From positions 5,704-69,703 of the forward strand of contig JACPIE010000028.1 in NCBI GenBank assembly GCA_016188245.1: a stretch of DNA of 64,000 nucleotides, read 5' to 3'. Of the stretch, positions 12,210 to 40,768 are shown piece after piece. The notes beneath the pieces were generated by a model that saw only the letters and a list, made by a program, of their open reading frames with translations, ran no database searches and was not told the DNA's origin. Source of the DNA: Candidatus Woesearchaeota archaeon. Lineage in GTDB: Archaea; Nanobdellota; Nanobdellia; Woesearchaeales; GW2011-AR4. The number at the start of each line of letters is the position of its first letter. The stretch's first letter is position 1. The translations under genes and the position numbers were made by a program.

Positions 12210-12929
12210 ATGTATAAAATATTCCGCTTTAAATCCTTAACATCAACCCAGGACAAAGCTAAAGAATTCTCCAAGAAAGGATTAAGCGATATAGTAGTTG
12301 TTGCCGGTGTTCAGACAAAAGGAATTGGGCGCTTCAAGAGAAAATGGCATTCCGGCAAAGGCGGATTATGGATGTCGATTTTGCTGAAGCCAAAAAGCAT
12401 CAAAAATTCCCAATATCTCACTTTTATTGCTGCAATCTCTGTTGCTGAATCAATACAAAAGATATCAAAATTAAAAACAAATATTAAATGGCCAAATGAT
12501 GTGCATTACAAAAGGAAAAAACTATGCGGCATACTTACAGATGGCATTTTTGGCAAAGATAATTTTATTGCTGTCGGAATAGGATTAAATGTCAACCAAA
12601 ATAAATTTCCAAGAGAAATAAGCAATACGGCAACTTCATTAAATCTCATAAAGCACAGGGCTTTCAGCATCAAAAAATTACTGGACGAAATAACGAATAA
12701 GTTCTTTTATTTGTATGAAAATTACTACATCAAAAATAAATTAGAATATATACTAAACTCATGGAAAAAATATAGTGACACTATAGGCAAGAATGTAATA
12801 GTTGCCACAAGAACAAAAAAGATTTACGGAAAAGCCATAGGCATCGATAAAAACTGCAATTTGCTATTAAGGCAAAAAAAAAGAAGAATAACAAAGATTA
12901 TTGAAGGAGACATAACTGTCAGGCATTAG
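12210..12929 (+). CDS. birA: Biotin-[acetyl-CoA-carboxylase] ligase
   Basis: GIGRFKRKWHSGKGGLWMSILLKP matches the GRGRxGRxWxSxxGxL biotin-ligase motif; also KWPNDV. No N-terminal HTH is evident. Confidence 0.8.
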   Translation: MYKIFRFKSLTSTQDKAKEFSKKGLSDIVVVAGVQTKGIGRFKRKWHSGKGGLWMSILLKPKSIKNSQYLTFIAAISVAESIQKISKLKTNIKWPNDVHYKRKKLCGILTDGIFGKDNFIAVGIGLNVNQNKFPREISNTATSLNLIKHRAFSIKKLLDEITNKFFYLYENYYIKNKLEYILNSWKKYSDTIGKNVIVATRTKKIYGKAIGIDKNCNLLLRQKKRRITKIIEGDITVRH

Positions 12930-20110: not shown

Positions 20111-20797
20111 ATGAGAATCTTAAGCAAAGACAAATATGTAATTGCAGGAGTTATAACTCTTGGAATATTCCTGCTTGGGCTTTTCTTGGGGCTAGCCATA
20201 GAGGGAAAAAGGGTAAACTACATAGAATCAGTCAGCAGGAGGCAAAACCTTGATTTCGGCAGCCTTCAGCTCCAGTATGCGTTCATAGACCAGCTCAGCC
20301 AGGACAATAACTGCCTGGCTGTGCAGAAAACCTTTGAGCACAACATCAACAATCTTGAATCAACGAGAATAAGGCTTGAAAATTTCAACAGGGATGCAAC
20401 ATTAAACAAAAATGAGCTGGACATATTGAAGAACGAGTATATTCTTGCCCAAATAAGGTACTGGCTTCTTGCGGAAAGAACGAAAGAAGTTTGCGGCTCT
20501 GACATAGTGAACATCCTTTATTTTTTTTCAGATGAGGAAGAATGCCCAGACTGCGAGAAGCAGGCATTTGTACTGACTTACCTCAAGAAAAAATTCAAGG
20601 ATAAGCTGCTTATATTCTCATTTGACTCAAAATTCAAGGACGAGCCAATGATAGGCCTGCTTAAAAACACATATGCTGTTGACAAGTACCCTTCATTAGT
20701 CATTGAAGGGAATCCCTCAAGCGGATTCAAGGACAAAAATGCGCTTCTGGAGCAGATATGCCCCAGTTATAAGGAAAAAACTGAAGATTGCGCCTGA
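20111..20797 (+). CDS. Membrane-anchored protein with a thioredoxin-like CxxC segment
   Basis: N-terminal TM helix; LYFFSDEEECPDCEKQAFVLTYLKK resembles a thioredoxin-fold CxxC site. ATG at 20111 lies directly after the GT2 stop. Confidence 0.35.
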   Translation: MRILSKDKYVIAGVITLGIFLLGLFLGLAIEGKRVNYIESVSRRQNLDFGSLQLQYAFIDQLSQDNNCLAVQKTFEHNINNLESTRIRLENFNRDATLNKNELDILKNEYILAQIRYWLLAERTKEVCGSDIVNILYFFSDEEECPDCEKQAFVLTYLKKKFKDKLLIFSFDSKFKDEPMIGLLKNTYAVDKYPSLVIEGNPSSGFKDKNALLEQICPSYKEKTEDCA

Positions 20798-29134: not shown

Positions 29135-29980
29135 ATGACAATAAAAAATCAGCTGAAAACAGCCATACTGCTTGCGCTGCTAACATCCATTCTGCTGTGG
29201 ATTGGCAGCCTGTTCGGAAAAGCAGGATTCTATTTTGCATTGATATTTGTGGGACTGATGAATTTTGGCTCTTATTGGTTTTCTGATAGGATTGTGCTTT
29301 GGATGTACAGGGCAAAAGAGGCAAAGCAAAGCGAATATCCAAATTTTTACAAGATTGTGAAGGAAATTTCTAAATTAAGCGGATTGCCAATGCCTAAAGT
29401 TTATGTTATTCCGACAAATTCGCCGAACGCCTTCGCAACAGGAAGGAACCCTGGTCATGCAGCAGTTGCAGCAACGGAAGGCATCCTGAAACTGCTGAAC
29501 GAGGAAGAGCTTAAAGGCGTTATCTCCCATGAATTTGCCCACATCAAGAACCGGGATATCTTAATTTCAACAGTTGCAGGAACAATTGCAGGAATCATCT
29601 CTTACATAGCCAATATGTTCATGTGGAGCGCAATTTTTGGCGGCAGGGACGATGACAACAGGGGCAACATAATCAGCTTATTGGTATTGGCAATACTCAC
29701 CCCAATAATCGCTTCATTAATCCAGCTTGCAATTTCAAGAAGCAGGGAATATCTTGCTGACGAGACTGGAGCAAAAACCGTAAAAAATGGAAATTCTCTT
29801 GCAGATGCCTTGGAGAAAATAGAGAAGAATGTCGACGCAAATCCATTAAGGTTTGGGAACCAGTCAACAGCGCATTTATTCATATCCAACCCGTTCAGAG
29901 GGCAGGCGCTCATGGCATTGTTCATGACGCACCCGAGCACCAAAGAGCGCACCCAAAGGCTCAGGGCAATGAAATTTTAG
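29135..29980 (+). CDS. htpX: Zinc metalloprotease HtpX (peptidase M48)
   Basis: NAFATG, HEFAHIKNRD (HExxH), EYLADETGA and THPSTKERTQRL. Confidence 0.85.
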   Translation: MTIKNQLKTAILLALLTSILLWIGSLFGKAGFYFALIFVGLMNFGSYWFSDRIVLWMYRAKEAKQSEYPNFYKIVKEISKLSGLPMPKVYVIPTNSPNAFATGRNPGHAAVAATEGILKLLNEEELKGVISHEFAHIKNRDILISTVAGTIAGIISYIANMFMWSAIFGGRDDDNRGNIISLLVLAILTPIIASLIQLAISRSREYLADETGAKTVKNGNSLADALEKIEKNVDANPLRFGNQSTAHLFISNPFRGQALMALFMTHPSTKERTQRLRAMKF

Positions 29981-30960
29981 GCTTTTTTCCTGCTTTTCTT
30001 CTTCGGCTTAATTGAGGATTCTTTAATCACTTCTTTTTGCGCTGATTTTTTCTTTCGGGCAAATGTATAGATCTTCCCGGCTATACCTATAGATAAAAAC
30101 ACAATTCCCAAAATTATTATTGCATGAGTATAGGTTCTCAGAAACAAAAGAAGAGCCACACTTATCAGCGCTTTTGGCTCAATGCCAAACCCTTCTCCAA
30201 ACATGTTCCCGAGGATTGATGTTGTGTCTATCCCGACAAAATTGTCATAAATGACTATCACCATGTACGGCAGCATTATAAAAATTCCGATATTCAAAGA
30301 AATGCCTGCCAATTCCAAAACAAACAATTTTACGTCCATCAACAACAAATACAGCAAAATCAGCAGTATAAGTATGGCGGCAAAATAGACAAGCTTATTG
30401 TTGCTTAAATAATTCATGAATTTAGCATAGCCTTCAAAAACCCCGCTATCCGGAATTTGGCCCGGCATTGCCCCTCCAACAACATCAAAGAAAAACTCCC
30501 TGTCATTTATTTTGCCGGACTTGTAATCCTTGCACAAGCTTCCTATCTTGCTCAAATCAGGTAGCAATGAACTTTTCTGCATTTTATTGCATTGGTTTTC
30601 AATCTCCCCTGATTCTATTTTGCTGCAGCTCTCTCTCACTCTGGCTTCATTTTCAATTTTGGCATTGCTTTTTTTTAGCTCCCGGTAACCTGCACAATCC
30701 TCTTTCATTGACTCAAGCAGGCTTCTGTTGGCGCAAATCTGGCTTATGGTTACCAAGTTTCCCTGCTCCAGCGATGAGCATGACTCTGCCAACTGGCCAA
30801 TTACTTGCTTTTGGGCATCGGGCGAGGCGTATGCAAAAATGTCCCCAAAAATTCCCTTAATCAGGTCCGGAAAATCAAAAGCTACTGAAGAAAAAATCAA
30901 TGTCGCGACAACTAAAACAATAAGAGATTTGACTATTGATATGGGGAATTTTTTTACCAT
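29977..30960 (-). CDS. Polytopic membrane protein with Cys-rich extracytoplasmic domain and Lys-rich tail
   Basis: N-terminal TM, about 150-aa soluble Cys-containing segment, 4-5 TM segments, KKKSRKKA tail. Start overlaps the upstream NTase gene by 7 nt. Confidence 0.35.
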   Translation of the reverse strand: MVKKFPISIVKSLIVLVVATLIFSSVAFDFPDLIKGIFGDIFAYASPDAQKQVIGQLAESCSSLEQGNLVTISQICANRSLLESMKEDCAGYRELKKSNAKIENEARVRESCSKIESGEIENQCNKMQKSSLLPDLSKIGSLCKDYKSGKINDREFFFDVVGGAMPGQIPDSGVFEGYAKFMNYLSNNKLVYFAAILILLILLYLLLMDVKLFVLELAGISLNIGIFIMLPYMVIVIYDNFVGIDTTSILGNMFGEGFGIEPKALISVALLLFLRTYTHAIIILGIVFLSIGIAGKIYTFARKKKSAQKEVIKESSIKPKKKSRKKA

Positions 30961-31472
30961 GAGCCCTCCTGCACAATTCCGTTTAATAAATTTGCCTTGA
31001 ATTCTTCGCTTATTTTGCCTAAACTTACTTCATGCACGCTTATTGCCTTTTTTAATATATTTTCATATTTTGACAAATCCAAATTTAATCTCTTGCTTGT
31101 TATGACAGCAATACCTATGTCTGATTTTTCGATGTCTTCTCCTCTTGAGAAGCTTCCAAACAAGATGATTGTTTTTGGCTGGTTGTATGATTCGGAAAGG
31201 CAGTCTATGATGCCTGATCGGTATATCAGCTCCAAATTATGCAGTCTTTTAAGCCTTGCAAAATCAATGTTTTCCCTGTTTGCAAAAACCTTTGTTATTA
31301 CCTTGCCCTTTTCCTTTATTATTAACCTCTCTTTTGCTAATCTGTCTGTTGCAGAAATGATGGTTGGCATGGATAATTTTAATATTCTGGAAAGCTCTCT
31401 AAGATGGAATTCCCTTGATGGATTATCAAAAAATACCGCTAAAACCTTCTGTATGGTAGATTTTTCTATCAT
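30954..31472 (-). CDS. Winged-helix + minimal nucleotidyltransferase (MNT-like) protein
   Basis: N-terminal FHLRELSRILKLSMPTIISATDRL is wHTH-like. ILFGSFSRGEDIEKSDIGIAV matches the GSxxRGxxxxxSDID NTase motif. Confidence 0.6.
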   Translation of the reverse strand: MIEKSTIQKVLAVFFDNPSREFHLRELSRILKLSMPTIISATDRLAKERLIIKEKGKVITKVFANRENIDFARLKRLHNLELIYRSGIIDCLSESYNQPKTIILFGSFSRGEDIEKSDIGIAVITSKRLNLDLSKYENILKKAISVHEVSLGKISEEFKANLLNGIVQEGSW

Positions 31473-31655
31473 TTGATAGATAAAAGTATCAATTGATATT
31501 TAAAACTATCGGTTTAATAAAGGACATAAAAATTTCTGAAAATTACCACCCTTCCTTGCCATATCTTTGAAAAATTTACTCTCTTATCAACTTTTATTTT
31601 TTCTTTCATTATAAATAAAAGTATTATTGAATGTATAAATGTTTTGGTTAGACAG

Positions 31656-31993
31656 AAAAGTTCGTGAAACGTACAATATTAAACGAGCTTTTTTCCCTCG
31701 TAAATTTTGTCCTCGTGAGGATTTTTTTGAGGCAGCCCACAAAAAATCCGAAACAGAGCTGACAAAATTTTCAGAGCTGGAAAAAAGTTAAGTTGAGTGA
31801 AGCGAAGCTACGAAGTGGCGAGCGGAACGAACCGTTTAATATGTGTTATATTCTTTTCCCATGCGTAGTGTGGGAAAACTGCGTCCGCAGACTTTTTCTG
31901 CGCCCAAGTGTGTTTGAGGCGACTTTTATGTAAGAAAAGGGCGTATAATCTACAGAGATTATGCGTAGGCTCAAATAGGATAATGAGGTTAGA
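31656..31993 (+). repeat. Left copy of a block-conserved inverted element (blocks A-D), expanded by hairpin insertions; possible structured ncRNA
   Basis: Blocks AAAAGTTCGTGAAAC (31656-31670), GTGTTATATTC (31843-31853), ACTTTTTCTGCGCCC (31891-31905) and GGATAATGAGGTTAGA (31978-31993) recur in the same order, reverse-complemented, at 38428-38525. The spacers fold into stems, including a 10-bp stem with one G-U pair at 31942-31965. TATAAAT lies at about 31634-31640. Confidence 0.5.
31676..31842. repeat. 167-nt hairpin-forming insertion bounded by 10-nt perfect inverted repeats (MITE-like or inserted RNA helix)
   Basis: ATATTAAACG (31676-31685) pairs with CGTTTAATAT (31833-31842). Inside is a three-tier nested stem: CTTTTTTCC/GGAAAAAAG, AAATTTTGTC/GACAAAATTT and GGATTTTTT/AAAAAATCC (31688-31787). 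Absent from the right copy, where blocks A and B are 2 nt apart. Confidence 0.5.
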
Positions 31994-32068
31994 TACTAGA
32001 GTACTTACGTTAGGCGAACTTTCCCAAATTAAGAAAATTTATAAATCAAAAAATCTTCTTTTTTGTTA

Positions 32069-32749
32069 ATGACAAATACTAAATGGAAAGCTTTTGAGGA
32101 ACTTGTCAAAAAAATTTATGATATATTCCTATCAGAATACGATAAAAATGTTAAGCACGATATTAAAATTAAAGGAAAATCTGGGCTGGAACATCAAATT
32201 GATGTTTTTGTTGAAATTTTTATGCCAATTCTAACAATTAAAGACATAATAGACTGTAAACATTGGAATAGCAGAGTTAAAAAATCTGACGTAAAAGAAA
32301 TTTATACTACTAGGGATGAGGTCAATGCTAATAGGGCTACAATAATTTCTCGTAAGGGATTTCAAAGTGGTGCAATTCAGTTTGCTAAATTTAACGGGAT
32401 TAATTTATATAAAATTCTGAAACCAGAAGAATTGGGATTGCACACTGCTGTTTTTAAGGTAGAAGGCATAAAAGAAGAAGTCATTAAACTTAATGTTCAA
32501 TTAGAAGCTGAAAATCCCGAACAATTAAATCAATTATTTTCAAAATTTCATAAGAAGAAAAATTATAATGAGGTCACGATTTATAACCAAAAAGGAGAAG
32601 CGATAGCAAATGTTTTCGATTTGATGGATGATGCTTTTAGTCATTTGCGAAAAATTCCAGAACCAGGTTTAGAATCTACGACAAGGTTTTTAAATAGTTA
32701 CATGATAATAGATGGCAAGAAAAGAAAGGTTAACTTTATTGAAATATGA
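32069..32749 (+). CDS. Restriction endonuclease-like protein (Mrr_cat type PD-(D/E)xK N-terminal domain + unknown C-terminal domain)
   Basis: WKAFEELVKKIY, GKSGLEHQIDVFVE, IIDCKHW and ATIISRKGFQSGAIQFAKFNGINLY follow the Mrr catalytic-domain pattern. Track start is TTG; ATG is at 32069. Confidence 0.6.
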   Translation: MTNTKWKAFEELVKKIYDIFLSEYDKNVKHDIKIKGKSGLEHQIDVFVEIFMPILTIKDIIDCKHWNSRVKKSDVKEIYTTRDEVNANRATIISRKGFQSGAIQFAKFNGINLYKILKPEELGLHTAVFKVEGIKEEVIKLNVQLEAENPEQLNQLFSKFHKKKNYNEVTIYNQKGEAIANVFDLMDDAFSHLRKIPEPGLESTTRFLNSYMIIDGKKRKVNFIEI

Positions 32750-32879
32750 ATTCAAAAGAGACCAATAAAAACAGAGAGATCTCAAGACATTAAAAATATA
32801 AAATTGCTCATAAACGATGTAGTTAATAACAAAATGTTTCTTGTTGAAAAACCAATTGGATTTGATTTGTTGGAAAAGG

Positions 32880-33647
32880 ATGGAATTTAAATGGGTAGTG
32901 AATAAAGAGGATATAGAAAGATTAAATAATTTCGTAGATAAATTTAAAGGAAATAATTTTGTGAAAGGTAGGGTTAAGAGGAACTTATCCGACAGTATAC
33001 CTCAATTTACTGAATCTGAATTTTGGAAATGGATGATTGGCTGCCTCTTGACAACACAACAGAGATCTGGTCCAAACAGCAGAATTTCTAAATTCTTAAT
33101 AATCACCCCTTTCCCCTTAAGCTATGATTCTTGTAAAAAGACTAAAAATCTTAAGAATTATTCATATGAGGTGCTTACCAAATCAAGAGGAATAAGAAGA
33201 ACAAACAAAATCAGTGAAGAAATTAAATTTAATTTTGATTGGTTGGTGAATGATGGTTGGGAAAAGATTATCAACATTTCAGAAAAGCTTATGGAAGCGA
33301 GGAAACAAAAGCCTTCAACAGAAAACATTAAGGTAGAACGAGAAGCATGCTTACTTGTTCAAGATTTGAAGGGGATAGGACCTAAGCAATCAAGGAATTT
33401 ATGGCAGGCTATGGGTTTAACAAGATATGAGATACCAATTGATAGCAGAATTATAAAATGGTTAAATAAAAATGAATTTCCATTTACTTTATCACCATCT
33501 GGATTATCGGATGAGAACTATTATCAGATGTTAATGGGGGGTATACAGGAATGGTGTGAAAGAGCGGATATTTTTCCTTGCATTTTTGATGCAGCAATAT
33601 TCTCAAGCTATGATGAAGAATGGCCAGAAGATTATGAACTTTGGTGA
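32880..33647 (+). CDS. HhH-GPD superfamily DNA glycosylase-like protein
   Basis: LKGIGPKQSRNLWQAMGLTRYEIPIDSRIIKWL is a helix-hairpin-helix plus a downstream Asp, as in EndoIII/OGG/AGOG enzymes. Track start is TTG; ATG is at 32880. Confidence 0.5.
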   Translation: MEFKWVVNKEDIERLNNFVDKFKGNNFVKGRVKRNLSDSIPQFTESEFWKWMIGCLLTTQQRSGPNSRISKFLIITPFPLSYDSCKKTKNLKNYSYEVLTKSRGIRRTNKISEEIKFNFDWLVNDGWEKIINISEKLMEARKQKPSTENIKVEREACLLVQDLKGIGPKQSRNLWQAMGLTRYEIPIDSRIIKWLNKNEFPFTLSPSGLSDENYYQMLMGGIQEWCERADIFPCIFDAAIFSSYDEEWPEDYELW

Positions 33648-33674
33648 ATATTAAAATTAATTTTTTCAGAAAAA

Positions 33675-34247
33675 ATGAAAAATAAAAAACTCACAATTGA
33701 AGAAAATATAAAAAAATTAAATTATTTTACTAGTATAGCTAAGGAAGCCGAGAAATCTGAGGATTTTCCAACAAAATTGGGTGCCTTGACTATTTATGCC
33801 GGAATGGTGGATTTCTCTGCTATACAAGCAGCAAAAGTTCTCGAACAAGTAATACTAAAATCACAGATAAAATTAAACAAAAGACCCTCATTTAAACCAA
33901 AATCTGATGAATATTTTTATAATTTTCAAGTCCCTAGCAGAAGAATAGGTAGAGTAATAAGCTCTCATTTACCTTTCAGACCCTTAGCTGGAACTAATGA
34001 AGAAAAAGCTCAGGAAATTACTTCTAAAGCTAAAAAATTTTTAGAATCACTGAATAACTTTCTTAATTATCGGAACACTCTGGTTCACCATTTAGGAAAT
34101 TCTAAGTTTAGTAAAGAATATTTATACGAACTACTAAATAAAGCAATATCAAAGTACAAAGAATATGTTATGGCTCATGAAGAATTTATGGACATAATAG
34201 CACCCTACACTCTTACTAAAGAACAAAGAGAAGAACTTTACAAATAG
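33675..34247 (+). CDS. Hypothetical all-helical protein with HEPN-like RNxxxH motif
   Basis: 190 aa; LNYRNTLVHHLGN fits the R-N-x3-H motif of HEPN RNases. No other recognisable feature. Confidence 0.35.
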   Translation: MKNKKLTIEENIKKLNYFTSIAKEAEKSEDFPTKLGALTIYAGMVDFSAIQAAKVLEQVILKSQIKLNKRPSFKPKSDEYFYNFQVPSRRIGRVISSHLPFRPLAGTNEEKAQEITSKAKKFLESLNNFLNYRNTLVHHLGNSKFSKEYLYELLNKAISKYKEYVMAHEEFMDIIAPYTLTKEQREELYK

Positions 34248-34332
34248 AAAATTAGAAAAGATGATATTACTATTATCAATTCAGCTATTATGTTCTCAAA
34301 AATGCCATCTAAAGTTATCATTTTTAGTTAAA

Positions 34333-34995
34333 TCAACCTATATAATCTGGCTTTTCTTTCTTGTTTTTTCTCTCTTGATATTTTCTAATGAAATATCTTA
34401 TTAACCAACGTGAGCCTGCGTATATTGTACATATTAAAGTCAATAGCGTTGTCCATGTCACAAAAAAGGTCAATTTATTTGTGAAATCTTTAGAGCTTTC
34501 AATAATGTAATCCAAGAGTGAAGGATCAGGAATTCGGATAAAATTATAGTAAGTTCCATTAAATCCAACATAAAGCCATGTAGGAATTGTCCGGATTTGT
34601 ATTGTGGTAGTCCCATTAACTAATTTTAGATTTTTTTCATGTAGTTCTTTTCCATTGCCAAAATCATAATACAAATCAGCAGAACAATCTTGGCATGGAA
34701 CACAAACAGGTTCAAAACTACTACATAAGTTTAACGTGATATGTAGCAAATCTCTTTCGCCAAAATTTTCATTATATGCTGCATCAATGTTATATGCTGG
34801 TACTATAGACATCATGCCGGGAATTGGAATCGCTACTCTATCTCCACTCCACCATAAAAATTGCTGATAAAAGAGAAGAGAAACCATCACGAATGAAAGA
34901 AATGCCGTCAGTAAAATTCTTTTTTCTGTAGGAATACCTCTAACAAACTCGTGCATTTTCTCAGCATTGGTTTTATATTTCTTCTTTTTCTTCAT
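34333..34995 (-). CDS. Hypothetical bitopic membrane protein with Cys-rich extracytoplasmic domain
   Basis: 220 aa; TM near the N-terminus and TM near the C-terminus; CSSFEPVCVPCQDCS cluster. Last gene of a 3-gene minus-strand cassette. Confidence 0.35.
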   Translation of the reverse strand: MKKKKKYKTNAEKMHEFVRGIPTEKRILLTAFLSFVMVSLLFYQQFLWWSGDRVAIPIPGMMSIVPAYNIDAAYNENFGERDLLHITLNLCSSFEPVCVPCQDCSADLYYDFGNGKELHEKNLKLVNGTTTIQIRTIPTWLYVGFNGTYYNFIRIPDPSLLDYIIESSKDFTNKLTFFVTWTTLLTLICTIYAGSRWLIRYFIRKYQERKNKKEKPDYIG

Positions 34996-35296
34996 TTATG
35001 TATTCTAGAGCTCTTTTTTTATTCCATTTATGTACTCCTTTTTCTTTAAATTCCACTAATAATGTTGTATTACTAAAATATCGTCCACAAGTATATGCTA
35101 ATAAAACTAAAACAATTATAAAAAAAGGGTATATGACCCAAGTTTCTCCACTTAAGATGGCTCTTAAAAAATCAAAAAAAGTTATGATAAGTACAACTAA
35201 AAAACTAACCATAAAAGCTTGATAAACACTCAACTGTCTCTTTAATTCTGATAATTTTGATTTTTTTACAATATTTAGCATTTTTTCTGCATTCAT
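34973..35296 (-). CDS. Hypothetical small membrane protein (2 TM)
   Basis: 107 aa; overlaps the downstream gene by 23 nt and lies 9 nt after the upstream gene. Confidence 0.3.
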   Translation of the reverse strand: MNAEKMLNIVKKSKLSELKRQLSVYQAFMVSFLVVLIITFFDFLRAILSGETWVIYPFFIIVLVLLAYTCGRYFSNTTLLVEFKEKGVHKWNKKRALEYINEEKEEI

Positions 35297-35305
35297 TTGT
35301 CAAAA

Positions 35306-35986
35306 TCATTTAGTTTCTCTTTTTATAAAATTAACAAATTTATAACCGAATTCATTTTGCCTAAACTCGAGATTTGGTTTATGGAAAAAATGATCATATG
35401 GCATAGAACCAGTATTTGCTTCTCTTTTCAATTGTTCAAATGATTCCCCAACCTTTTCGAAAGCCCGACCAATCGAATCAATATCCCTTTGTACTAAGCC
35501 GTGTCCAGACAGCACATTTATCAAGGATTTTTCTCGTGGATTTAAAAAAGATTCATTAATTATAGTATGATCTTCCTCGTAGATACTTAATAGATAGACA
35601 AGTTCTTCCTCAGATAGTCTATCTAAAATATTAAGAAACGAGAGTTTTTCGTCAAAAGAAATTTTCTTTTTATAAGAATTTATTGCCAAATTTAAATATC
35701 TCTTTCGTTTTTCTTCTCTATTCTCAAAAGCTACCTTTTGAACAAGTTCTCGGATAAATTGTATATTTTCCGCAGATTTCCTAGCATCATCAATCATAAA
35801 CAAAACATCGACTTCATTGATAAATTCTTCCCACCACTCTTTATTTCTTTTACTAAGATATTCAAAGCCCTGAACTAGCAAGGCAAAAGATCCTGTTGTT
35901 GCCCCAACAATCCCCCCAAATAGAATGTCTATTATTGGTGCTACAGTCTTAAAGACTTCAATTCCAAACTCTTTTTTCTCATTCAT
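35306..35986 (-). CDS. Hypothetical protein (N-terminal Gly-rich hydrophobic segment, helical body)
   Basis: 226 aa with ATG start; first gene of the minus-strand cassette. No family recognised. Confidence 0.4.
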   Translation of the reverse strand: MNEKKEFGIEVFKTVAPIIDILFGGIVGATTGSFALLVQGFEYLSKRNKEWWEEFINEVDVLFMIDDARKSAENIQFIRELVQKVAFENREEKRKRYLNLAINSYKKKISFDEKLSFLNILDRLSEEELVYLLSIYEEDHTIINESFLNPREKSLINVLSGHGLVQRDIDSIGRAFEKVGESFEQLKREANTGSMPYDHFFHKPNLEFRQNEFGYKFVNFIKRETK

Positions 35987-36158
35987 TTTTATTTAGTTGG
36001 TTTCTAATCCTTTAAAAAGGCTTCCATACATTACACTGAAAATGTTTGACATAACGTTAACAGAGTATGCAAATATGAGAAACTTACCTATCCAAAAATC
36101 AGTAACCTTTAAATTCCCTTATTCATTCTATTTTCTATAGTAAAAGGGATTGATAATC

Positions 36159-36320
36159 ATGCTTGATTGGGATAAAAAGCAATGGAAATTATTCTGGCTA
36201 GGTAGTACTGGATTTTTCATTATAACTGGTGTTTTTGGGATAATGAGTCAAGTTTGGTATACGATTGCAATCTCGGTAATTATGACATCTATCTCAATTA
36301 TACAATATAAAAAAATTTAA
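36159..36320 (+). CDS. Small membrane protein (53 aa, 2 TM), below the ORF-track cutoff
   Basis: ATG 36159, TAA 36318-36320; translates to MLDWDKKQWKLFWLGSTGFFIITGVFGIMSQVWYTIAISVIMTSISIIQYKKI. Ends 2 nt before the next ATG. Confidence 0.25.
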   Translation: MLDWDKKQWKLFWLGSTGFFIITGVFGIMSQVWYTIAISVIMTSISIIQYKKI

Positions 36321-36322
36321 TC

Positions 36323-37429
36323 ATGAGTAAAGAAGAGCTAGATAGGAAAATTTCTGAATTCAGGGATTTTTTAGAGAAAAATAATTTTCCTGTTGTGAAT
36401 TTAATATTTGAAAATTTTCTTAGTGGGAAAATAAAAAACAAATTCTTAGATTTAGTTAAATTATCAAAAAAAGTAGATACCTCAAAACAGGAAAACGAAA
36501 TAAAATTTGATTTAATAAAACTACTCGATAGAATCGTTAGATTAGATCCAACAAGAATTAAGAAATATTATCTTTGGGATATTGCTGTTGAAGAAAAAAC
36601 AGATTTTGTATTTGAGAAATTCCCAGAGGTAAAAGAATTATTGGACGAAGATGGGCTTATTCAAATACCTTACAACTCTGATTTAAATAAGAATGGATTC
36701 AGATACAAGGATAGTTATCTAATTTTTGAGAATGCTTACAGCAGAAATTTTCATCTAACACAATGGTTAATAGAAAATTGGAAAAATAATTTTGTACTAA
36801 AACTTCCGATTAACAAAAACTGTTTAGGAGTTTCTGAAACAAGGAGACAAGTAGAATTACTTTCTCATTGGCAAGGTCCTAAAACAATTAATCAAATTAA
36901 AGAATCTTTAGCGGGAAAGGAATTTGTCGTGAAAGGCCCAAGTTTTTTTGATGCACCTTTGATGGATAAAACAGAGTTCTTATTTAATTCACGAGATAAT
37001 AAGTGGCATTTGCAAATTGAGGAGTTGTTACCTCTAGACGGCATTGAACTTGGAACAATAATTAATTATCAAGACAAAGAACATAAATTTTATACTAGGT
37101 ATCTACATGCAATTACTAACAAAAATCTGTCAGAATGTTTTCATATGGATGGTGGAATAAGAGTTTACAAAACTTATGAAAATTTTGAAAGGAGGAATAA
37201 ATCTGAATTAAAAGATTCTAGCATAACAAGTTACTCAGATAGATATAAATTTTTTAGAGTAGATTCAGAAAGTGGAATTTCATCCTTTCAAGAGATTATT
37301 GGTTTGTTTTTCATAGCAAACCCTTATGTTTTAGAGTTTTTTGATGGAGAAAGTAATTTCACCAAAGATTTAGAAAAAAACAGAACAGGCATTTTAGAAA
37401 TAGATTTTAAGTATAAAAAATTCAATTAA
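36323..37429 (+). CDS. Hypothetical soluble protein, 368 aa
   Basis: Long ATG-initiated ORF in an A+T-rich context where stop codons are frequent. No family recognised. Confidence 0.45.
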   Translation: MSKEELDRKISEFRDFLEKNNFPVVNLIFENFLSGKIKNKFLDLVKLSKKVDTSKQENEIKFDLIKLLDRIVRLDPTRIKKYYLWDIAVEEKTDFVFEKFPEVKELLDEDGLIQIPYNSDLNKNGFRYKDSYLIFENAYSRNFHLTQWLIENWKNNFVLKLPINKNCLGVSETRRQVELLSHWQGPKTINQIKESLAGKEFVVKGPSFFDAPLMDKTEFLFNSRDNKWHLQIEELLPLDGIELGTIINYQDKEHKFYTRYLHAITNKNLSECFHMDGGIRVYKTYENFERRNKSELKDSSITSYSDRYKFFRVDSESGISSFQEIIGLFFIANPYVLEFFDGESNFTKDLEKNRTGILEIDFKYKKFN

Positions 37430-37483
37430 TTAACAAGTTAAATAAAGTAATCCTTAAATACATATTGATATTTGTAAAAATTT

Positions 37484-38407
37484 ATGAATAATATAATAAT
37501 AAATGCTTCGAATGGAATCAACGCTTCTATATCTATTTTAAACAACAATCCACCTATAAATTATTCTATAATAGAAAGTATAGCAAATAATGCTGTTTCA
37601 ACTTTAACAAGTGCTAATACGGCTTTTATTGATCCTTACTGGTTTTATAGTGCCGCTGCACAATCTGCCGCAGCAATTGTTGGTCTTATGGGTGCTTTCT
37701 TAACCACTAAAATCATAAGTATACATAGTCAGAAAAAACAATTAAAACAGAATATTTCGACTTACAAAAATCAGATAGAGTTTATAGAAAAAGAAATAAA
37801 ACCATTTCAAGAATGGATAAAAAAAATTGATGAGGATGAAGAAAGAAAAAATGTTATAAAATTCTTGGATGAAATAAAAGAAACAATAAATCTAGATAAT
37901 CCCCCAGAGTTTGAATCAATTCTGAAAGAAGCAAGAGAATCTGAAGATTTTAAAGACATCAGTGAAGAAATTCTAAAAGAAGAGTACAATGAAGAATTTT
38001 TTAATTCAGTAAGAAACTATCGCCGTACGCCACCTTTTGCTAGGGGACTCTCTAACTTATTCACTTCAAATTTAGACGCAACTAGAGATAAATGGAATAG
38101 GTATCGAGAATATTCTGATTATATAGATAAAAAATTAGTAGAAGTTGAATCACTCAAAAAATTAATTTCCATAAAAGAAGATGAAATAAAAAGTCTAGTA
38201 ACACTAAAGGAGTTAAGAGATAACATTTTTTCACTAATAATATTTTCTATATTGGGTGTTGTTGTCCCATTAACTTTATTAATGTTGAATTATGAGACAA
38301 TGCTTAAATGGCGATTAATCGTTCTTGCTCTTTTTATTTTTGGATTAAGTCTTGTTGTTGTTACTATTAGCAATGAAATAAGAAAAATATTTTCAAGCAA
38401 ATATTGA
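37484..38407 (+). CDS. Hypothetical membrane protein: TM - long coiled coil - two C-terminal TM segments
   Basis: 307 aa; hydrophobic AAAQSAAAIVGLMGAFLTTKII, an E/K-rich heptad-like middle, and a C-terminal LIIFSILGVVVPLTLLML / LIVLALFIFGLSLVVV. Confidence 0.4.
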   Translation: MNNIIINASNGINASISILNNNPPINYSIIESIANNAVSTLTSANTAFIDPYWFYSAAAQSAAAIVGLMGAFLTTKIISIHSQKKQLKQNISTYKNQIEFIEKEIKPFQEWIKKIDEDEERKNVIKFLDEIKETINLDNPPEFESILKEARESEDFKDISEEILKEEYNEEFFNSVRNYRRTPPFARGLSNLFTSNLDATRDKWNRYREYSDYIDKKLVEVESLKKLISIKEDEIKSLVTLKELRDNIFSLIIFSILGVVVPLTLLMLNYETMLKWRLIVLALFIFGLSLVVVTISNEIRKIFSSKY

Positions 38408-38427
38408 TACATAAAACAAATAAATAG

Positions 38428-38525
38428 TCTAACCTCATTATCCGTTAGTCTTTCTTTCTCTTAAGAGAAACAGTAATCGAAGGGGCGCAGAAAAAGTGAA
38501 TATAACACTAGTTTCACGAACTTTT
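38428..38525 (-). repeat. Right (compact) copy of the block-conserved inverted element
   Basis: Reverse complements of blocks D (38428-38443), C (38483-38497), B (38498-38508) and A (38511-38525). The C-D spacer contains a 16-nt perfect palindrome TTTCTCTTAAGAGAAA (38455-38470). Confidence 0.5.
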
Positions 38526-38557
38526 ACTTTATTTTCATACGTAAATTTTCCATTTTT

Positions 38558-40768
38558 CTAACTCTCCTTATACTCCCCTTCGACAACGTCCTTTATCTGC
38601 TTTGCCTTTAAAGGGCCTATCTTGCCGACTTCCTGCAGCTCCTTTTCAGAGGCATTCACAATGTTTTTTATTGTCTTGAAATGCTTCAGCAAGGGCTTTG
38701 CCAAAGTAAGGTTTATGCCGGGCAGCGAGCTTACAAAATACTCCTGCTGCTCTTTTAATGTGGCTGGCTTTCTGTCGGCATGCAGGCTGAAGTCCTTGCC
38801 CGTTTCGTCCTGCTCCCTTCTTGCTATTATCTGCAGCAAGGCAGCAGTTTCCTTAGAGCTTCTTGTCTGCACAATCGGGATGCCGTAGCTTACGGCAATC
38901 GTGGCAAGCATACCCAGGATTGAATTTTGATGCACGTTCCTCACGCTGTAGATGTCTTGGTTTCCTTCTATGACCACCATGGGCCTTTCAAAATTATTCT
39001 TGAGATTTTTTATCTGCTCAAGCAGCCTTCCGTCAATTATGCTGTCAACAAAATCGTGCACTGCTTTGACTTCAATGCCGCACCTTGAAGAAACAATATA
39101 ATCCGCATAATCCAGCTTTTCCAGGCTTATGGAAACATCATTTTCAGCAAGCTCTTTTAAAATGCCGCTTCCCTTTTCCCTATAGTCGGCAAATATCCTT
39201 AACCTGCCGGCGAACCTGTTCACCGGAACCTCTTTTTTAACATTCAATGAAAGATTCAGCTTTTTCCTCAAATTTTCCAGGTGCCTGTGCATCTTCTTTT
39301 CATTATGGTGCGCAACCCACCTGTAGGCTTCATCTCTTGTGCCTTCTGCCATAAGAATAATGACTCTGCCCTTATCCTGCCTTCCTGTCCTGCCTCTCCT
39401 CTGTATGCTCCTTATCGCGCTTGGAATAGGCTCGTAAAAAATAACCAAGTCCACTTTTGGAATATCCAGCCCTTCCTCCCCGATTGAAGTTGCCACAATG
39501 ACATTAAACAAGCCCTGCCTGAAATCGTCAAGCATCTGCTTCTGCTCTTTCTGGCTCAATCCAGTGTCATTTTTTTTCTGCTGCCCGACAAAAATATTGG
39601 CCTTGACGTTTGGAATCATGTTAAGCTTTCTCATAACATCAAGGGCGTTATCCCTGTATTGGTTGAAAATCATTATTTTTACATTTTCATTTTGCCTGAC
39701 TTCATTTTCGACAATATTCTGCAGCTCTATCAGCTTCGGGTGCTCTACTTTTTCCTCGTGCAAAATCCTTGCCTTGACCATCGCAGACTTGAAGTTTGAA
39801 TCGCCCATTACGGATTTTATCGCCTTGGTTTTGCCTGTCCTTGATTCGGCGATAAGCTTTTCAAAGTACTTGTGCAGCGCGGCAATTCCCTGGCTTTCAA
39901 GCAACTCCAGGGCATGATGCACCTTCATCATTTCAGCAAGCAAGGAAATTGAGTTCCATACAACAAAATCCTTTTCGCCGGAAGATATCTTTCCTCTCAG
40001 CTCAGCCTGCAGCTGCAGCAAGTCAGACTTTGAGGCAAACTTGGAATTCTGCCTCTGCAGGATGCCCCATTGCCTGAGCTTTTCAAACCTCTCTTTCAAA
40101 AACAGCAGCAAAAATTTTTGTATGTCTATGAATACCTTTGGAAGCTTAACTTTGACCCAGTCTATCTGCATCTCCTGTATGTACGGCTTTACATCAGGAT
40201 CTTCGTCAGTCCTTACTTCAATTCCCTCAATGAAAAGATTCCTGCAGACATCCTCTATCTTGGCCATATCGCTTCCGGGAGAGGCTGTCAAGGCAATTAT
40301 CCTCGGAAATCTTGAAAGCTTCATGAACTGCTTCGCGACAAAAACATAAGAATAATCCCCAACAGCGCGATGGGCCTCGTCAATCCCAAGCAGGCAAACT
40401 TCTTCAAGATTTATCCTGCTGCTTATTATGTCATTTTCCAGGCCTTGGGGAGTTGAGAAAATTATTTTTGATTTGCCCCAGAGCTCCTGCCTTTTTTCCG
40501 GGCTTACCATTCCTGTAAAAACTGCCATATCACTGCCATCGATGACAAAATGCTCCCTGAAAACATTTATGTACTGCTCAATCAAGGGTTTTGTGGGGCC
40601 TATGAAAAGCACCTTTGAATTCGGATACTGCTTGAGCCTTTGCGCAGCAAGCATAAGGAAAATGTTGGTCTTGCCCATGCCTGTAGGCAGCACAACCAAA
40701 GTGTTCTTTTCAGCGGCTGTTGCAAGAATTGTCTGCTGGTACAGCCTTGGCTCAAAGTTCTTAATCAT
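38558..40768 (-). CDS. hef: Hef: helicase-associated endonuclease for fork-structured DNA (SF2 helicase + ERCC4 nuclease + HhH2)
   Basis: LPTGMGKT, GIDEAHRAVG, TSIGEEGLDIP, QRRGRTGR, then ERCC4 YADYIVSSRCGIEVK and the C-terminal LPGINLTLAKPLL HhH pair. Track start is TTG; ATG is at 40766-40768. Confidence 0.85.
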   Translation of the reverse strand: MIKNFEPRLYQQTILATAAEKNTLVVLPTGMGKTNIFLMLAAQRLKQYPNSKVLFIGPTKPLIEQYINVFREHFVIDGSDMAVFTGMVSPEKRQELWGKSKIIFSTPQGLENDIISSRINLEEVCLLGIDEAHRAVGDYSYVFVAKQFMKLSRFPRIIALTASPGSDMAKIEDVCRNLFIEGIEVRTDEDPDVKPYIQEMQIDWVKVKLPKVFIDIQKFLLLFLKERFEKLRQWGILQRQNSKFASKSDLLQLQAELRGKISSGEKDFVVWNSISLLAEMMKVHHALELLESQGIAALHKYFEKLIAESRTGKTKAIKSVMGDSNFKSAMVKARILHEEKVEHPKLIELQNIVENEVRQNENVKIMIFNQYRDNALDVMRKLNMIPNVKANIFVGQQKKNDTGLSQKEQKQMLDDFRQGLFNVIVATSIGEEGLDIPKVDLVIFYEPIPSAIRSIQRRGRTGRQDKGRVIILMAEGTRDEAYRWVAHHNEKKMHRHLENLRKKLNLSLNVKKEVPVNRFAGRLRIFADYREKGSGILKELAENDVSISLEKLDYADYIVSSRCGIEVKAVHDFVDSIIDGRLLEQIKNLKNNFERPMVVIEGNQDIYSVRNVHQNSILGMLATIAVSYGIPIVQTRSSKETAALLQIIARREQDETGKDFSLHADRKPATLKEQQEYFVSSLPGINLTLAKPLLKHFKTIKNIVNASEKELQEVGKIGPLKAKQIKDVVEGEYKES

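Follow-up and report, generated by a model that had tools for sequence, protein, structure and literature searches.

Several described systems combine conserved borders with exchangeable DNA, or modular repeats with stable folds. Mobile insertion cassettes and composites of miniature inverted-repeat transposable elements (MITEs) have inverted ends around variable passengers, no transposase inside and varied genomic contexts. Bacterial interspersed mosaic elements with repetitive extragenic palindromes (BIME/REP), pneumococcal BOX and enterobacterial repetitive intergenic consensus (ERIC) sequences consist of optional hairpin units that lie in intergenic positions at gene ends, fold stably and occur in mixed combinations and orientations. 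The attI/attC sites of integrons, including archaeal integrons (Ghaly et al., 2022, PMC9668308), form promoterless-looking borders of one or a few accessory genes, and attC sites fold strand-specifically with G·T/G·U pairs, have conserved end boxes around a variable center, and keep a fixed polarity. Guide RNAs encoded by mobile elements (IS110 bridge RNA, IS1111 seekRNA, and the omega RNA of IS200/IS605 TnpB/IscB) are structured RNAs of 150-400 nt in a noncoding end of the mobile unit and share sequence with the element ends, and invertons (Hin/Gin, Mpi) have inverted repeats that flank a segment. Traits of each of these systems recur in an element, at its long end a candidate structured RNA, that we analyzed in a 64-kb stretch of DNA from Candidatus Woesearchaeota, a DPANN lineage (contig JACPIE010000028.1; "the window" is this whole stretch), where a long copy and a compact inverted copy bracket a low-GC island next to the gene for Hef.

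By analogy, the long element would work most like a mobile-insertion-cassette or integron border joined to a BIME/BOX-like modular structured repeat. Judging from the sequence, we give an even chance to the reading that it is a structured RNA gene of about 367 nt, from a new modular Woesearchaeota family that borders exchangeable gene cassettes, and it would then most likely be a stand-alone small RNA gene with the + strand as sense strand. This reading is based on covariation and conserved loops in a multi-branch fold, on wobble pairs specific to one strand, on the U-run at the end of the 5'/3' closing stem, on a GC content close to that of the host and not of the cargo, and on the placement of the two copies on opposite strands, both of which single-strand DNA transposition could not use. 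In the published literature, no description of such an element was found. The parts of the long element and its compact partner are as follows.

31609-31641, + strand: TATA-like boxes, by sequence a candidate archaeal promoter (TTATAAATAAAA at 31609-31620, TATAAAT at 31635-31641)
31656-32022, + strand: long structured element, about 367 nt, with A/P1-P2, domain I, B, hairpins II and III, C, domain IV, D and E
31656-31673, + strand: block A (AAAAGTTCGTGAAAC at 31656-31670, with an exact 15-nt inverted copy at 38511-38525, - strand)
31657-31664 and 31668-31673, + strand: 5' strands of P1 (AAAGTTCG) and P2 (AACGTA), in block A
31674-31843, + strand: domain I, three-way, with basal stem P3 (CAATATTAAACG/CGTTTAATATG), arm P4 and a GA-rich side arm
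Within domain I, + strand: nested motif CTCGTGA...GAAACAGAGCTG and conserved loop TGAGGCAGCCCAC
31843-31853, + strand: block B (GTGTTATATTC, 11 nt; inverted copy at 38498-38508)
31854-31878, + strand: hairpin II, arms TTTTCCCA/TGGGAAAA, as a helix TTTTCCCATGC/GTGTGGGAAAA
31879-31890, + strand: hairpin III, CTGCG/CGCAG, with ACTTTTT of block C directly 3' in a terminator-like arrangement
31891-31904, + strand: block C (ACTTTTTCTGCGCC, 14 nt; exact inverted copy at 38484-38497)
31914-31975, + strand: domain IV, closing stem TTTGAG/CTCAAA (5' arm 31914-31919)
31924-31940 and 31943-31966, + strand: domain IV hairpins CTTTT/AAAAG and, with 10/11 bp and a conserved U·G pair, GCGTATAATCT/AGATTATGCGT
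31978-31993, + strand: block D (GGATAATGAGGTTAGA, 16 nt; exact inverted copy at 38428-38443)
31994-32022, + strand: block E (TACTAGAGTACTTACGTTAGGCGAACTTT), with the 3' strands of P2 (TACGTT, 32006-32011) and P1 (CGAACTTT, 32015-32022) and a T-run at its end
38428-38525, - strand: compact partner, A-TAG-B-C, a 40-nt spacer with a TTTCTC/GAGAAA hairpin, CTAAC/GTTAG and D, without E

Fold and covariation of the long element

Relatives were collected by scanning GTDB genomes and JGI/ENA metagenomes with a combined C...D pattern, which occurs at two places only in the window (0.00 expected from shuffles). The scans yielded loci L001 and L003-L008, further relatives were added by Hef-based look-ups, and one metagenome match (L002) was discarded as a chance match. 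The relatives lie in Woesearchaeota-like contigs from several studies and habitats. L001 is a 2-kb contig (CAZVCF010000117.1) placed in a 'Gammaproteobacteria' metagenome-assembled genome; its long and compact elements are of Woesearchaeota type, about 94-96% identical to those of the window, so that the contig is probably mis-binned. Long copies are present at the left end of the window cassette and in L001, L004 and L008, with a variant in L005, and have in common a C-D domain of about 73 nt and block E. Compact copies (window right, L001, L003, L005, L006, L007 and L008) have a C-D spacer of 37-41 nt with TTCTC/GAGAA and CTAAC...GTTAG hairpins. No further copies of the element were found within the 64-kb window, and model R1 gave no new copies across 219 kb of sequence; a weak similarity at 57.7 kb of the window lies within a coding region and was judged to be due to chance.

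An earlier note on this DNA had taken the left element, at 31656-31993, for a structured RNA in which conserved single-stranded blocks alternate with variable helices. Blocks A to D and all the hairpins named there exist, and the four blocks recur, colinear and inverted, at 38428-38525. The positions given for hairpins II and III were exact, and the other three were off by one (31914-31919 instead of 31913-31918, 31924-31940 instead of 31923-31939, and 31943-31966 instead of 31942-31965). Also present are the TATAAAT box, a T-run at 32059-32064 ahead of the Mrr-like gene, and the 16-nt palindrome at 38455-38470 in the right copy. The 172 nt between A and B, which were absent from that description, form one three-way domain, and the element reaches 32022, beyond 31993, because block A pairs with a fifth block, E, and thereby closes the fold. 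A suggested pairing of A (AAAAGT) with C (ACTTTT) has to be given up, as the partner of A is E and a change in L005 would make A:C an A·G. Single-strandedness of the blocks holds at most in part, since A is paired and block C is predicted to pair, without covariation, with the purine-rich AGAAAAG, with block D or in an alternative hairpin (CGCAG-ACTTTTT-CTGCG).

The minimum free energy (MFE) of the long element is -119.9 kcal/mol. Against dinucleotide shuffles, its fold has z = -4.2 for 31656-31993 and z = -6.0 for 31656-32027, and the long copies overall fold 2.7-6.0 standard deviations better than shuffles. The helices covary with homologs in L001, L004, L005, L008 and L009. Closing helices P1 and P2 are both present in the MFE fold; P1 has a U·G pair in L008, and P2 reads CTAACAT/ATGTTAG in L005 (G-C to A-U), where a G-to-A change in block A is matched by a C-to-T change in block E. 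Block E (TACTAGA..AGTTACGTTAGGCGAACTTT) is found in long copies only; L001, L008 and L005 conserve it, and in L004 it has diverged. The A:E closing stem ends in T3-T5 in the window, L001, L008 and L005.

Covariation is most extensive in domain I, for which RNAalifold predicted 54 pairs in alignment A5 (window, L009 and L004), with 98.6% of cells paired and 9 compensatory pairs, versus 3.0 +/- 1.4 in shuffles (1 of 500 reached 9) and 0-4 in slid controls. Stem P3 has the counterparts CAATCTTAAACG/CGTTTAAGATG in L004 and ..TTTAGGC/GCCTAAA.. in L009, and is fully covaried in L005 (GGAATTATGCG/CGCATAATTCC). Arm P4, AGCTTTTTTCC/GGAAAAAAGTT in the window, is replaced by AGCTTTTTCTC/GAGAAAAAGTT in L004 and by AACATTTTTT/AAAAAATGTT in L009. 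The distal hairpin changes from GGATTTTTT/AAAAAATCC to GCAAATTT/AAATTTGC in L004 and encloses a conserved loop, TGAGGCA(G/A)CCC(A/G)C; the flanking motif (CTCGTGA and its nested partner) is also kept among homologs. Domain IV has 22 pairs, 96.6% paired, with 3 compensatory pairs versus none in 6 of 6 slid controls, and reads TTTAAGG/CCTTAAA and GCGTTTAATGT/ACATTAAGCGC in L004. The 11-bp hairpin of this domain has one U·G pair that is unchanged in six homologs, and the T·G pair that the earlier note gave for its 10-bp stem is present. Hairpin II shows C-G to U-A and G·U to A-U changes in L005. Hairpin III is invariant and therefore uninformative on covariation.

A table compiled by hand for 13 helices in up to six homologs contains 319 Watson-Crick pairs, 16 G·U pairs (about 7 of them at independent sites), no A·C pair and 6 others. 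A symmetric palindrome in double-stranded DNA would show G·T and A·C equally, so that these counts argue for a fold specific to the sense (+) strand. Together, the alignments show that the fold of the long element is conserved by compensatory changes and strand-specific. Covarying pairs, on which the earlier note had made its view of a structured left element depend, are present in nearly every helix.

That note had also reported no match to RNase P, SRP, tRNA, C/D or H/ACA signatures, and Rfam 15 covariance models at gathering thresholds gave no match in the whole window. A permissive search returned at best a plant microRNA and small nucleolar RNAs (E = 0.12-0.44, 23-29 bits below threshold). 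ARAGORN found no tRNA or transfer-messenger RNA gene in the window, pattern scans of viral contigs gave no match, and neither did blastn against plasmids and phages. A sigma-70/terminator scan was uninformative, the host being an archaeon. Readings of the blocks as kink-turn, bulge-helix-bulge intron or promoter were unsupported by eye, and a C/D small RNA was rejected on its defining features. Coding potential was rejected as well, since no open reading frame (ORF) exceeds 53 aa and the ORF starting in block D is not conserved. This 28-codon ORF (31983-32069) begins at an ATG within block D, and its final TAATG overlaps with the start codon of Mrr; in L001 it stops after 6 codons and in L008 it has no ATG, and it is probably fortuitous.

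Gene cassettes and the site downstream of Hef

The same borders surround unrelated cargo, and the polarity of the cassettes is fixed. Between a long copy and an inverted compact copy lie 6.4 kb of genes in the window, 1.8 kb in L001, 1.25 kb in L008 and 1.1 kb in L005; the L006 cassette has one ATPase gene between a lone A block and a compact copy. The cargo is unrelated among the five loci, except for one membrane-protein gene common to L001 and L008, and inter-locus homology ends exactly past E and exactly before D', the D block of the compact copy. Both copies point inward, in the same orientation in all five loci. Downstream of each of the five long copies, at 27-63 nt, is a gene in the same orientation (for an Mrr-like nuclease, a coiled-coil protein, two different membrane proteins and an unknown 195-aa protein), and each first cargo gene has its own TATA-like box past E. 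Each of the six compact copies has a convergent gene in front of it, with the 3' end toward the copy. The gene outside the cassette is often co-directional and just upstream of the inward-facing copy (Hef in the window, others in L004, L006 and L008). When the earlier note set structured RNAs against terminal repeats, it posed a false choice, because in five loci the same blocks behave as inverted repeats at the borders of a cassette whose cargo varies.

In the window, the blocks are 100% identical between the left and right copies, with unrelated spacers. Block B occurs as TAAATGC in L008 and as TATATTC in the window and L005, identical at both ends within a locus.

The remaining features of the window cassette and its surroundings are these.

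31548-31571, - strand: C-terminal remnant of a DUF5678 gene, FKDMARKG (7/8 residues by tblastn, weak alone at E = 1.2, in agreement with the nucleotide limit at 31546)
32023-38427, no strand assigned: low-GC cargo with nine ORFs, including those for an Mrr-like nuclease and an Abi-alpha-like protein
38526-38557, - strand: 32-nt spacer between the Hef stop codon and A' (conserved in L024 and L029, partly in L009; absent from empty sites)

The GC content is about 41% in the flanks, 28-32% in the cargo (27-32% across 32.0-38.0 kb) and about 40% in the long element. The other cargo ORFs encode several membrane or unknown proteins, the Abi-alpha-like match is weak, and three of the cargo genes are on the opposite strand. 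PADLOC and Pfam revealed no recombinase, transposase or mobility gene in the window cargo (only weak nuclease and Abi-like matches), and no mobility enzyme was recognizable in the cargo ORFs of L001 and L003-L008, whose translations were read by eye. The Mrr-like nuclease gene (32069-32890) has a C-to-T nonsense change at 32747 (CGA to TGA), which shortens the product from 273 to 226 aa relative to L031 and L032, so that this genome has probably lost a functional first cargo gene.

The window cargo recurs with 99.98% identity as separate short contigs, L031-L035 (five runs of one series). These five Logan contigs contain the cargo alone. L031 corresponds to window 31977-38457, and its ends are positions that differ in L001, so that strain variants account for them. 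L032-L035 all start at 31993, directly past GGTTAG of block D; this common break at 31992/31993 could be an alternative junction.

Hef (38558-40768, - strand) is a 736-aa helicase/ERCC4 nuclease with 100% identity to an NCBI Woesearchaeota protein and more than 100 relatives at 67-87% identity, labeled Woesearchaeota or Nanoarchaeota. One homolog (P0059, 1265 aa) has intein/LAGLIDADG domains (PF14890, PF14528) and is an intein-containing Hef. The 3' end of the gene is a hot spot, and the site downstream of it is empty or differently filled in close relatives. In L016-L023 and L030, the next core gene comes straight after Hef: in L016-L023, a membrane-protein gene matching window 29977-30960 follows 37 nt past Hef, and in L030 an M48 peptidase gene lies directly past it. 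In L025-L028, Hef is followed by a DUF5678 gene and by the same nucleotidyltransferase (NTase) gene as at window 30954-31472. L009-L015 have A, domain I and a different 3' domain at this site (in L009 with a thioredoxin/DsbD cluster), and L029 has A, other modules and a HinfI-like nuclease gene. Block A of the filled sites is always 32-36 nt from the Hef stop codon.

Homology between the window and L025 ends at 38555 and resumes at 31546. The DUF5678 gene, intact in L025-L028, is a remnant in the window, so that the island replaced most of it; taken together, homology limits and remnant place the window-specific DNA at about 31576-38557. The TATA-like stretch lies inside this DNA, past the remnant. 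No target duplication flanks the units of the window, L008 or L024; L006, which has A/A' only, shows a 7-bp direct repeat, CTTAAAG.

Three further observations concern the neighborhood of this site. L018 (2426-5743) and also L019 have an insertion with an IS4/IS5-type DDE transposase, and a 438-aa gene, between genes for 99 and 154 aa; the ends of the IS4-like element in L018 are unrelated to the blocks. L027 has an IS200/IS605 Y1 transposase gene (53-517) upstream of Hef. Directly upstream of the NTase start codon, at 31456-31514, there are direct and palindromic repeats (TCATTTGATAGATAAAAGTATCAATTGATA...), which are also found at L025 3700-3760 and kept in relatives; by sequence, they look like an operator for the winged helix-turn-helix NTase (MNT-type) gene.

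The blocks also occur in other combinations. L009-L015 continue after A, domain I and B with a different 3' domain, L024 and L029 have A-TAG-TGTTA followed by other modules, and L016, L019 and L020 have a solo A-B-C (5' half) element that adjoins a 5S rRNA gene. These combinations indicate a modular and mosaic family. In L016, the 5S rRNA gene is at 20168-20285 (- strand) and the solo member at 20345-20560 (+ strand), composed of AAAAGTTCGCCATAACGT-TGTTATATTC-ACTTTTTT and other hairpins, without cargo and without an inverted partner. L024 contains a cargo-free mini-unit of 95 nt whose ends are A-like and inverted. In L009, three hairpins at 12380-12530 all have the loop CUUUGAUG (GCC-UUUGAU-GGC, GGGC-UUUGAU-GCCC and CCCCC-UUUGAU-GGGGG), one of them followed by CUGA; the repeated loop is possibly a protein-binding or K-loop-like motif.

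Possible roles and alternative explanations

If the element is a structured RNA gene, the long copy would be transcribed from its own TATA-like box and end at the U-run that closes helix P1. Blocks A to D could serve as common recognition sequences for a trans-acting factor. The inward-facing modules of a hairpin and T5 (B/C and hairpin III/C) may shield the cargo from outside read-through, and the conserved borders may supply homology or sites for cargo swapping. The terminator-like look of these modules and their position, facing inward downstream of co-directional outside genes, fit such shielding border modules and flanks for exchange.

Several points weigh against the reading as an RNA gene with these roles. 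Each helix was compared in 3-6 homologs, several of which are closely related, and since folds of the + strand served to define the helices at first, the count of G·U versus A·C pairs is biased. Low fold energies are obtained for either strand, and the two cannot be told apart by z-score. Blocks C and D were fixed by the search patterns, so that the invariance of C among homologs is partly an ascertainment effect. Archaeal promoters are hard to call in AT-rich DNA and the distance from TATA to A varies among homologs, which makes the 5' end of the RNA, and the inclusion of A, uncertain. The A:E pairing also has the appearance of MITE-like terminal inverted repeats, and the inserted DNA extends about 80 nt past A and 32 nt past A', so that it is not bounded exactly by the inverted repeats. 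Modules with other partners or in another orientation (L009, L016, L024 and L029) fit a repeat family equally, and the insulator and exchange roles are ones that we only infer.

The compact copy also counts on this side. It was regarded in the earlier note as a homologous structured RNA, but has no fold signal versus shuffles (z of about 0) and, with 7 sequences aligned, 17 predicted pairs without a single compensatory one. One-sided changes in compact copies yield G·U on the A-to-D strand only, and on the cargo-sense strand the copy ends in T-runs. Lacking E as well, it looks like a truncated paralog and not like an equivalent structured RNA.

The alternative that survives best, which we consider possible but somewhat unlikely, is that the ends act as DNA. 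In that case, blocks A to D, with A and the reverse complement of E as AAAAGTTCG..AACGT, would serve a non-autonomous cassette as terminal or subterminal inverted repeats or as sites of recombination. The cassette could be a mobile insertion cassette, a composite flanked by MITEs or an invertible/integrative segment, and its enzyme would be encoded elsewhere. No RNA function would be needed, and the hairpins would act as single-stranded or cruciform DNA or be palindromic insertions. This would account for the same inverted borders around unrelated cargo in five loci of differing contexts, for empty sites in relatives and for cargo without mobility genes. The differing compact copies look like independent deletions of domain I, and G·T pairs are tolerated in DNA hairpins too. 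However, the three-way domain, its conserved loops and the 9 compensatory pairs exceed the needs of protein-binding repeats, the single orientation at all loci gives no sign of inversion, and an IS200/IS605-type single-strand mechanism cannot use copies on opposite strands.

As in MITEs, terminal inverted repeats are present (A/A', 15 nt exact; A/E, which bound the long element itself; A-like ends in L024 and L006), the L024 mini-unit is free of cargo, and CTTAAAG at the L006 A/A' pair is a possible target duplication. Unlike MITE units, the loci have no consistent target duplication, with none at the window, L008 and L024, and the window insert runs past both A blocks. The loci retrieved contain no cognate transposase or invertase, the ends of the IS4-like element in L018 not matching. 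Furthermore, the ends are 100-370 nt long, with four distinct colinear blocks and, at one end, a covarying multi-helix fold. A classical MITE or mobile insertion cassette was rejected on target duplication and insert limits.

The comparison with integrons leads to a similar result. The words GTTAGGC and GTTAGAT are present, as in attC sites, but the borders are inverted and not direct, and each locus has one cassette and no array. In contrast to attC, a single imperfect hairpin of 55-141 nt, the long copy has 367 nt and several domains, and the compact copy is not self-complementary. For attC boxes RYYYAAC/GTTRRRY, it is GTGAAAC and not RYYYAAC that lies opposite GTTAGGC. A domain scan detected no integrase domain or IntI in the window cargo, the NTase or Hef. 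An integron attC site was rejected on the inverted borders, the missing array, the wrong boxes and the multi-domain fold. Invertons may differ in that all five loci here have the same orientation and no invertase is nearby; we take the ACGT-centered word of A/E (AAACGTAC) to resemble the Bacteroides Mpi site consensus, as a lead and not as a test. BIME, BOX and ERIC differ from the present elements, which are archaeal (DPANN), of low apparent density (one pair in 64 kb), laid out with the long copy upstream and the compact inverted copy downstream, equipped with a three-way domain with conserved loops, and not linked to a RAYT-type enzyme (REP-associated tyrosine transposase).

Two other alternatives seem improbable to us. 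According to the first, the borders are modules of the cargo mRNA in cis, the long copy being a 5' leader of the cargo operon and the reverse complement of the compact copy a 3' untranslated region with terminator. The four complementary blocks (56 nt) would pair the transcript ends, or the long RNA would be antisense to the 3' untranslated region, and either would control stability, processing or translation. The strict polarity of long copies upstream and compact copies at the 3' end of the last gene (5/5 and 6/6), the perfect complementarity of the blocks on one strand and the cargo-sense T-runs of the compact copy are as expected from this. A single transcript cannot span the window cargo, however, because three of its genes are on the opposite strand; the first cargo genes have TATA-like boxes of their own, past the T-run that ends E, and the compact-copy G·U pairs are on the wrong strand for a cargo transcript. 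A riboswitch or ligand-sensing leader was rejected because the downstream genes are functionally unrelated across representatives.

According to the second, of like probability, blocks A to D of a guide or bridge-type RNA pair with compact-end DNA and a target, and direct a recombinase or nuclease, encoded in trans, that moves or exchanges the cassette. In favor of this, the candidate RNA of one end shares its blocks with the other end, block B variants are matched at both ends of a locus, and insertion recurs at a fixed distance (32-36 nt) from the stop codon of Hef. For A, C and D, nevertheless, substitutions are unmatched between the ends in L005 and L008, the left side of the L006 cassette has block A alone, and A (paired with E) and C (predicted to be paired) are not exposed in loops. 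In known guide RNAs, the shared sequences are short split guides in loops, unlike the 56 nt in four blocks seen here. No recombinase or nuclease partner is present in or beside any cassette examined: a domain scan of ten genes in or beside the window cassette revealed no IS110-type DEDD/RuvC-like recombinase, and none was seen by eye in the cargo of L001 and L003-L008; TnpB/IscB was likewise absent from the window cassette and, by eye, from related cargo ORFs. Rfam gave no match to omega-RNA motifs, if these are among its 4,227 models. Bridge RNA and omega RNA were rejected on their defining features, as no recombinase or nuclease gene adjoins. Finally, it is hardly credible that this is functionless duplicated intergenic DNA in decay, with hairpins that arose by chance, for although the compact copy lacks a fold signal and short hairpins are common in an AT-rich host, the blocks are 100% identical despite unrelated spacers, compensatory changes are far above controls, and conservation of the element extends over contigs that stem from several studies and habitats.

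Little is known about the ways in which DPANN archaea, with their tiny genomes and no cultured genetics, take up and regulate foreign genes. A far-reaching version of the RNA reading, which we regard as unlikely though a little less so than the mRNA-module and guide-RNA alternatives, is a new DPANN cassette system, in which the border RNA of about 370 nt and its compact partner would direct capture, exchange or silencing of foreign accessory and defense genes through RNA-DNA or RNA-RNA pairing of the four blocks and a trans-encoded enzyme. If true, this would make an equivalent, based on RNA, of the integron attI/attC system or of bridge-RNA recombination. If the long element is an RNA, it would represent a sizeable new class of archaeal non-coding RNA tied to gene exchange; if it acts as DNA, it would be a new archaeal cassette or transposon end of unusual architecture. 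Either way, two alignments ready for covariance models and the block pattern provide a sequence handle for finding DPANN gene cassettes in metagenomes.

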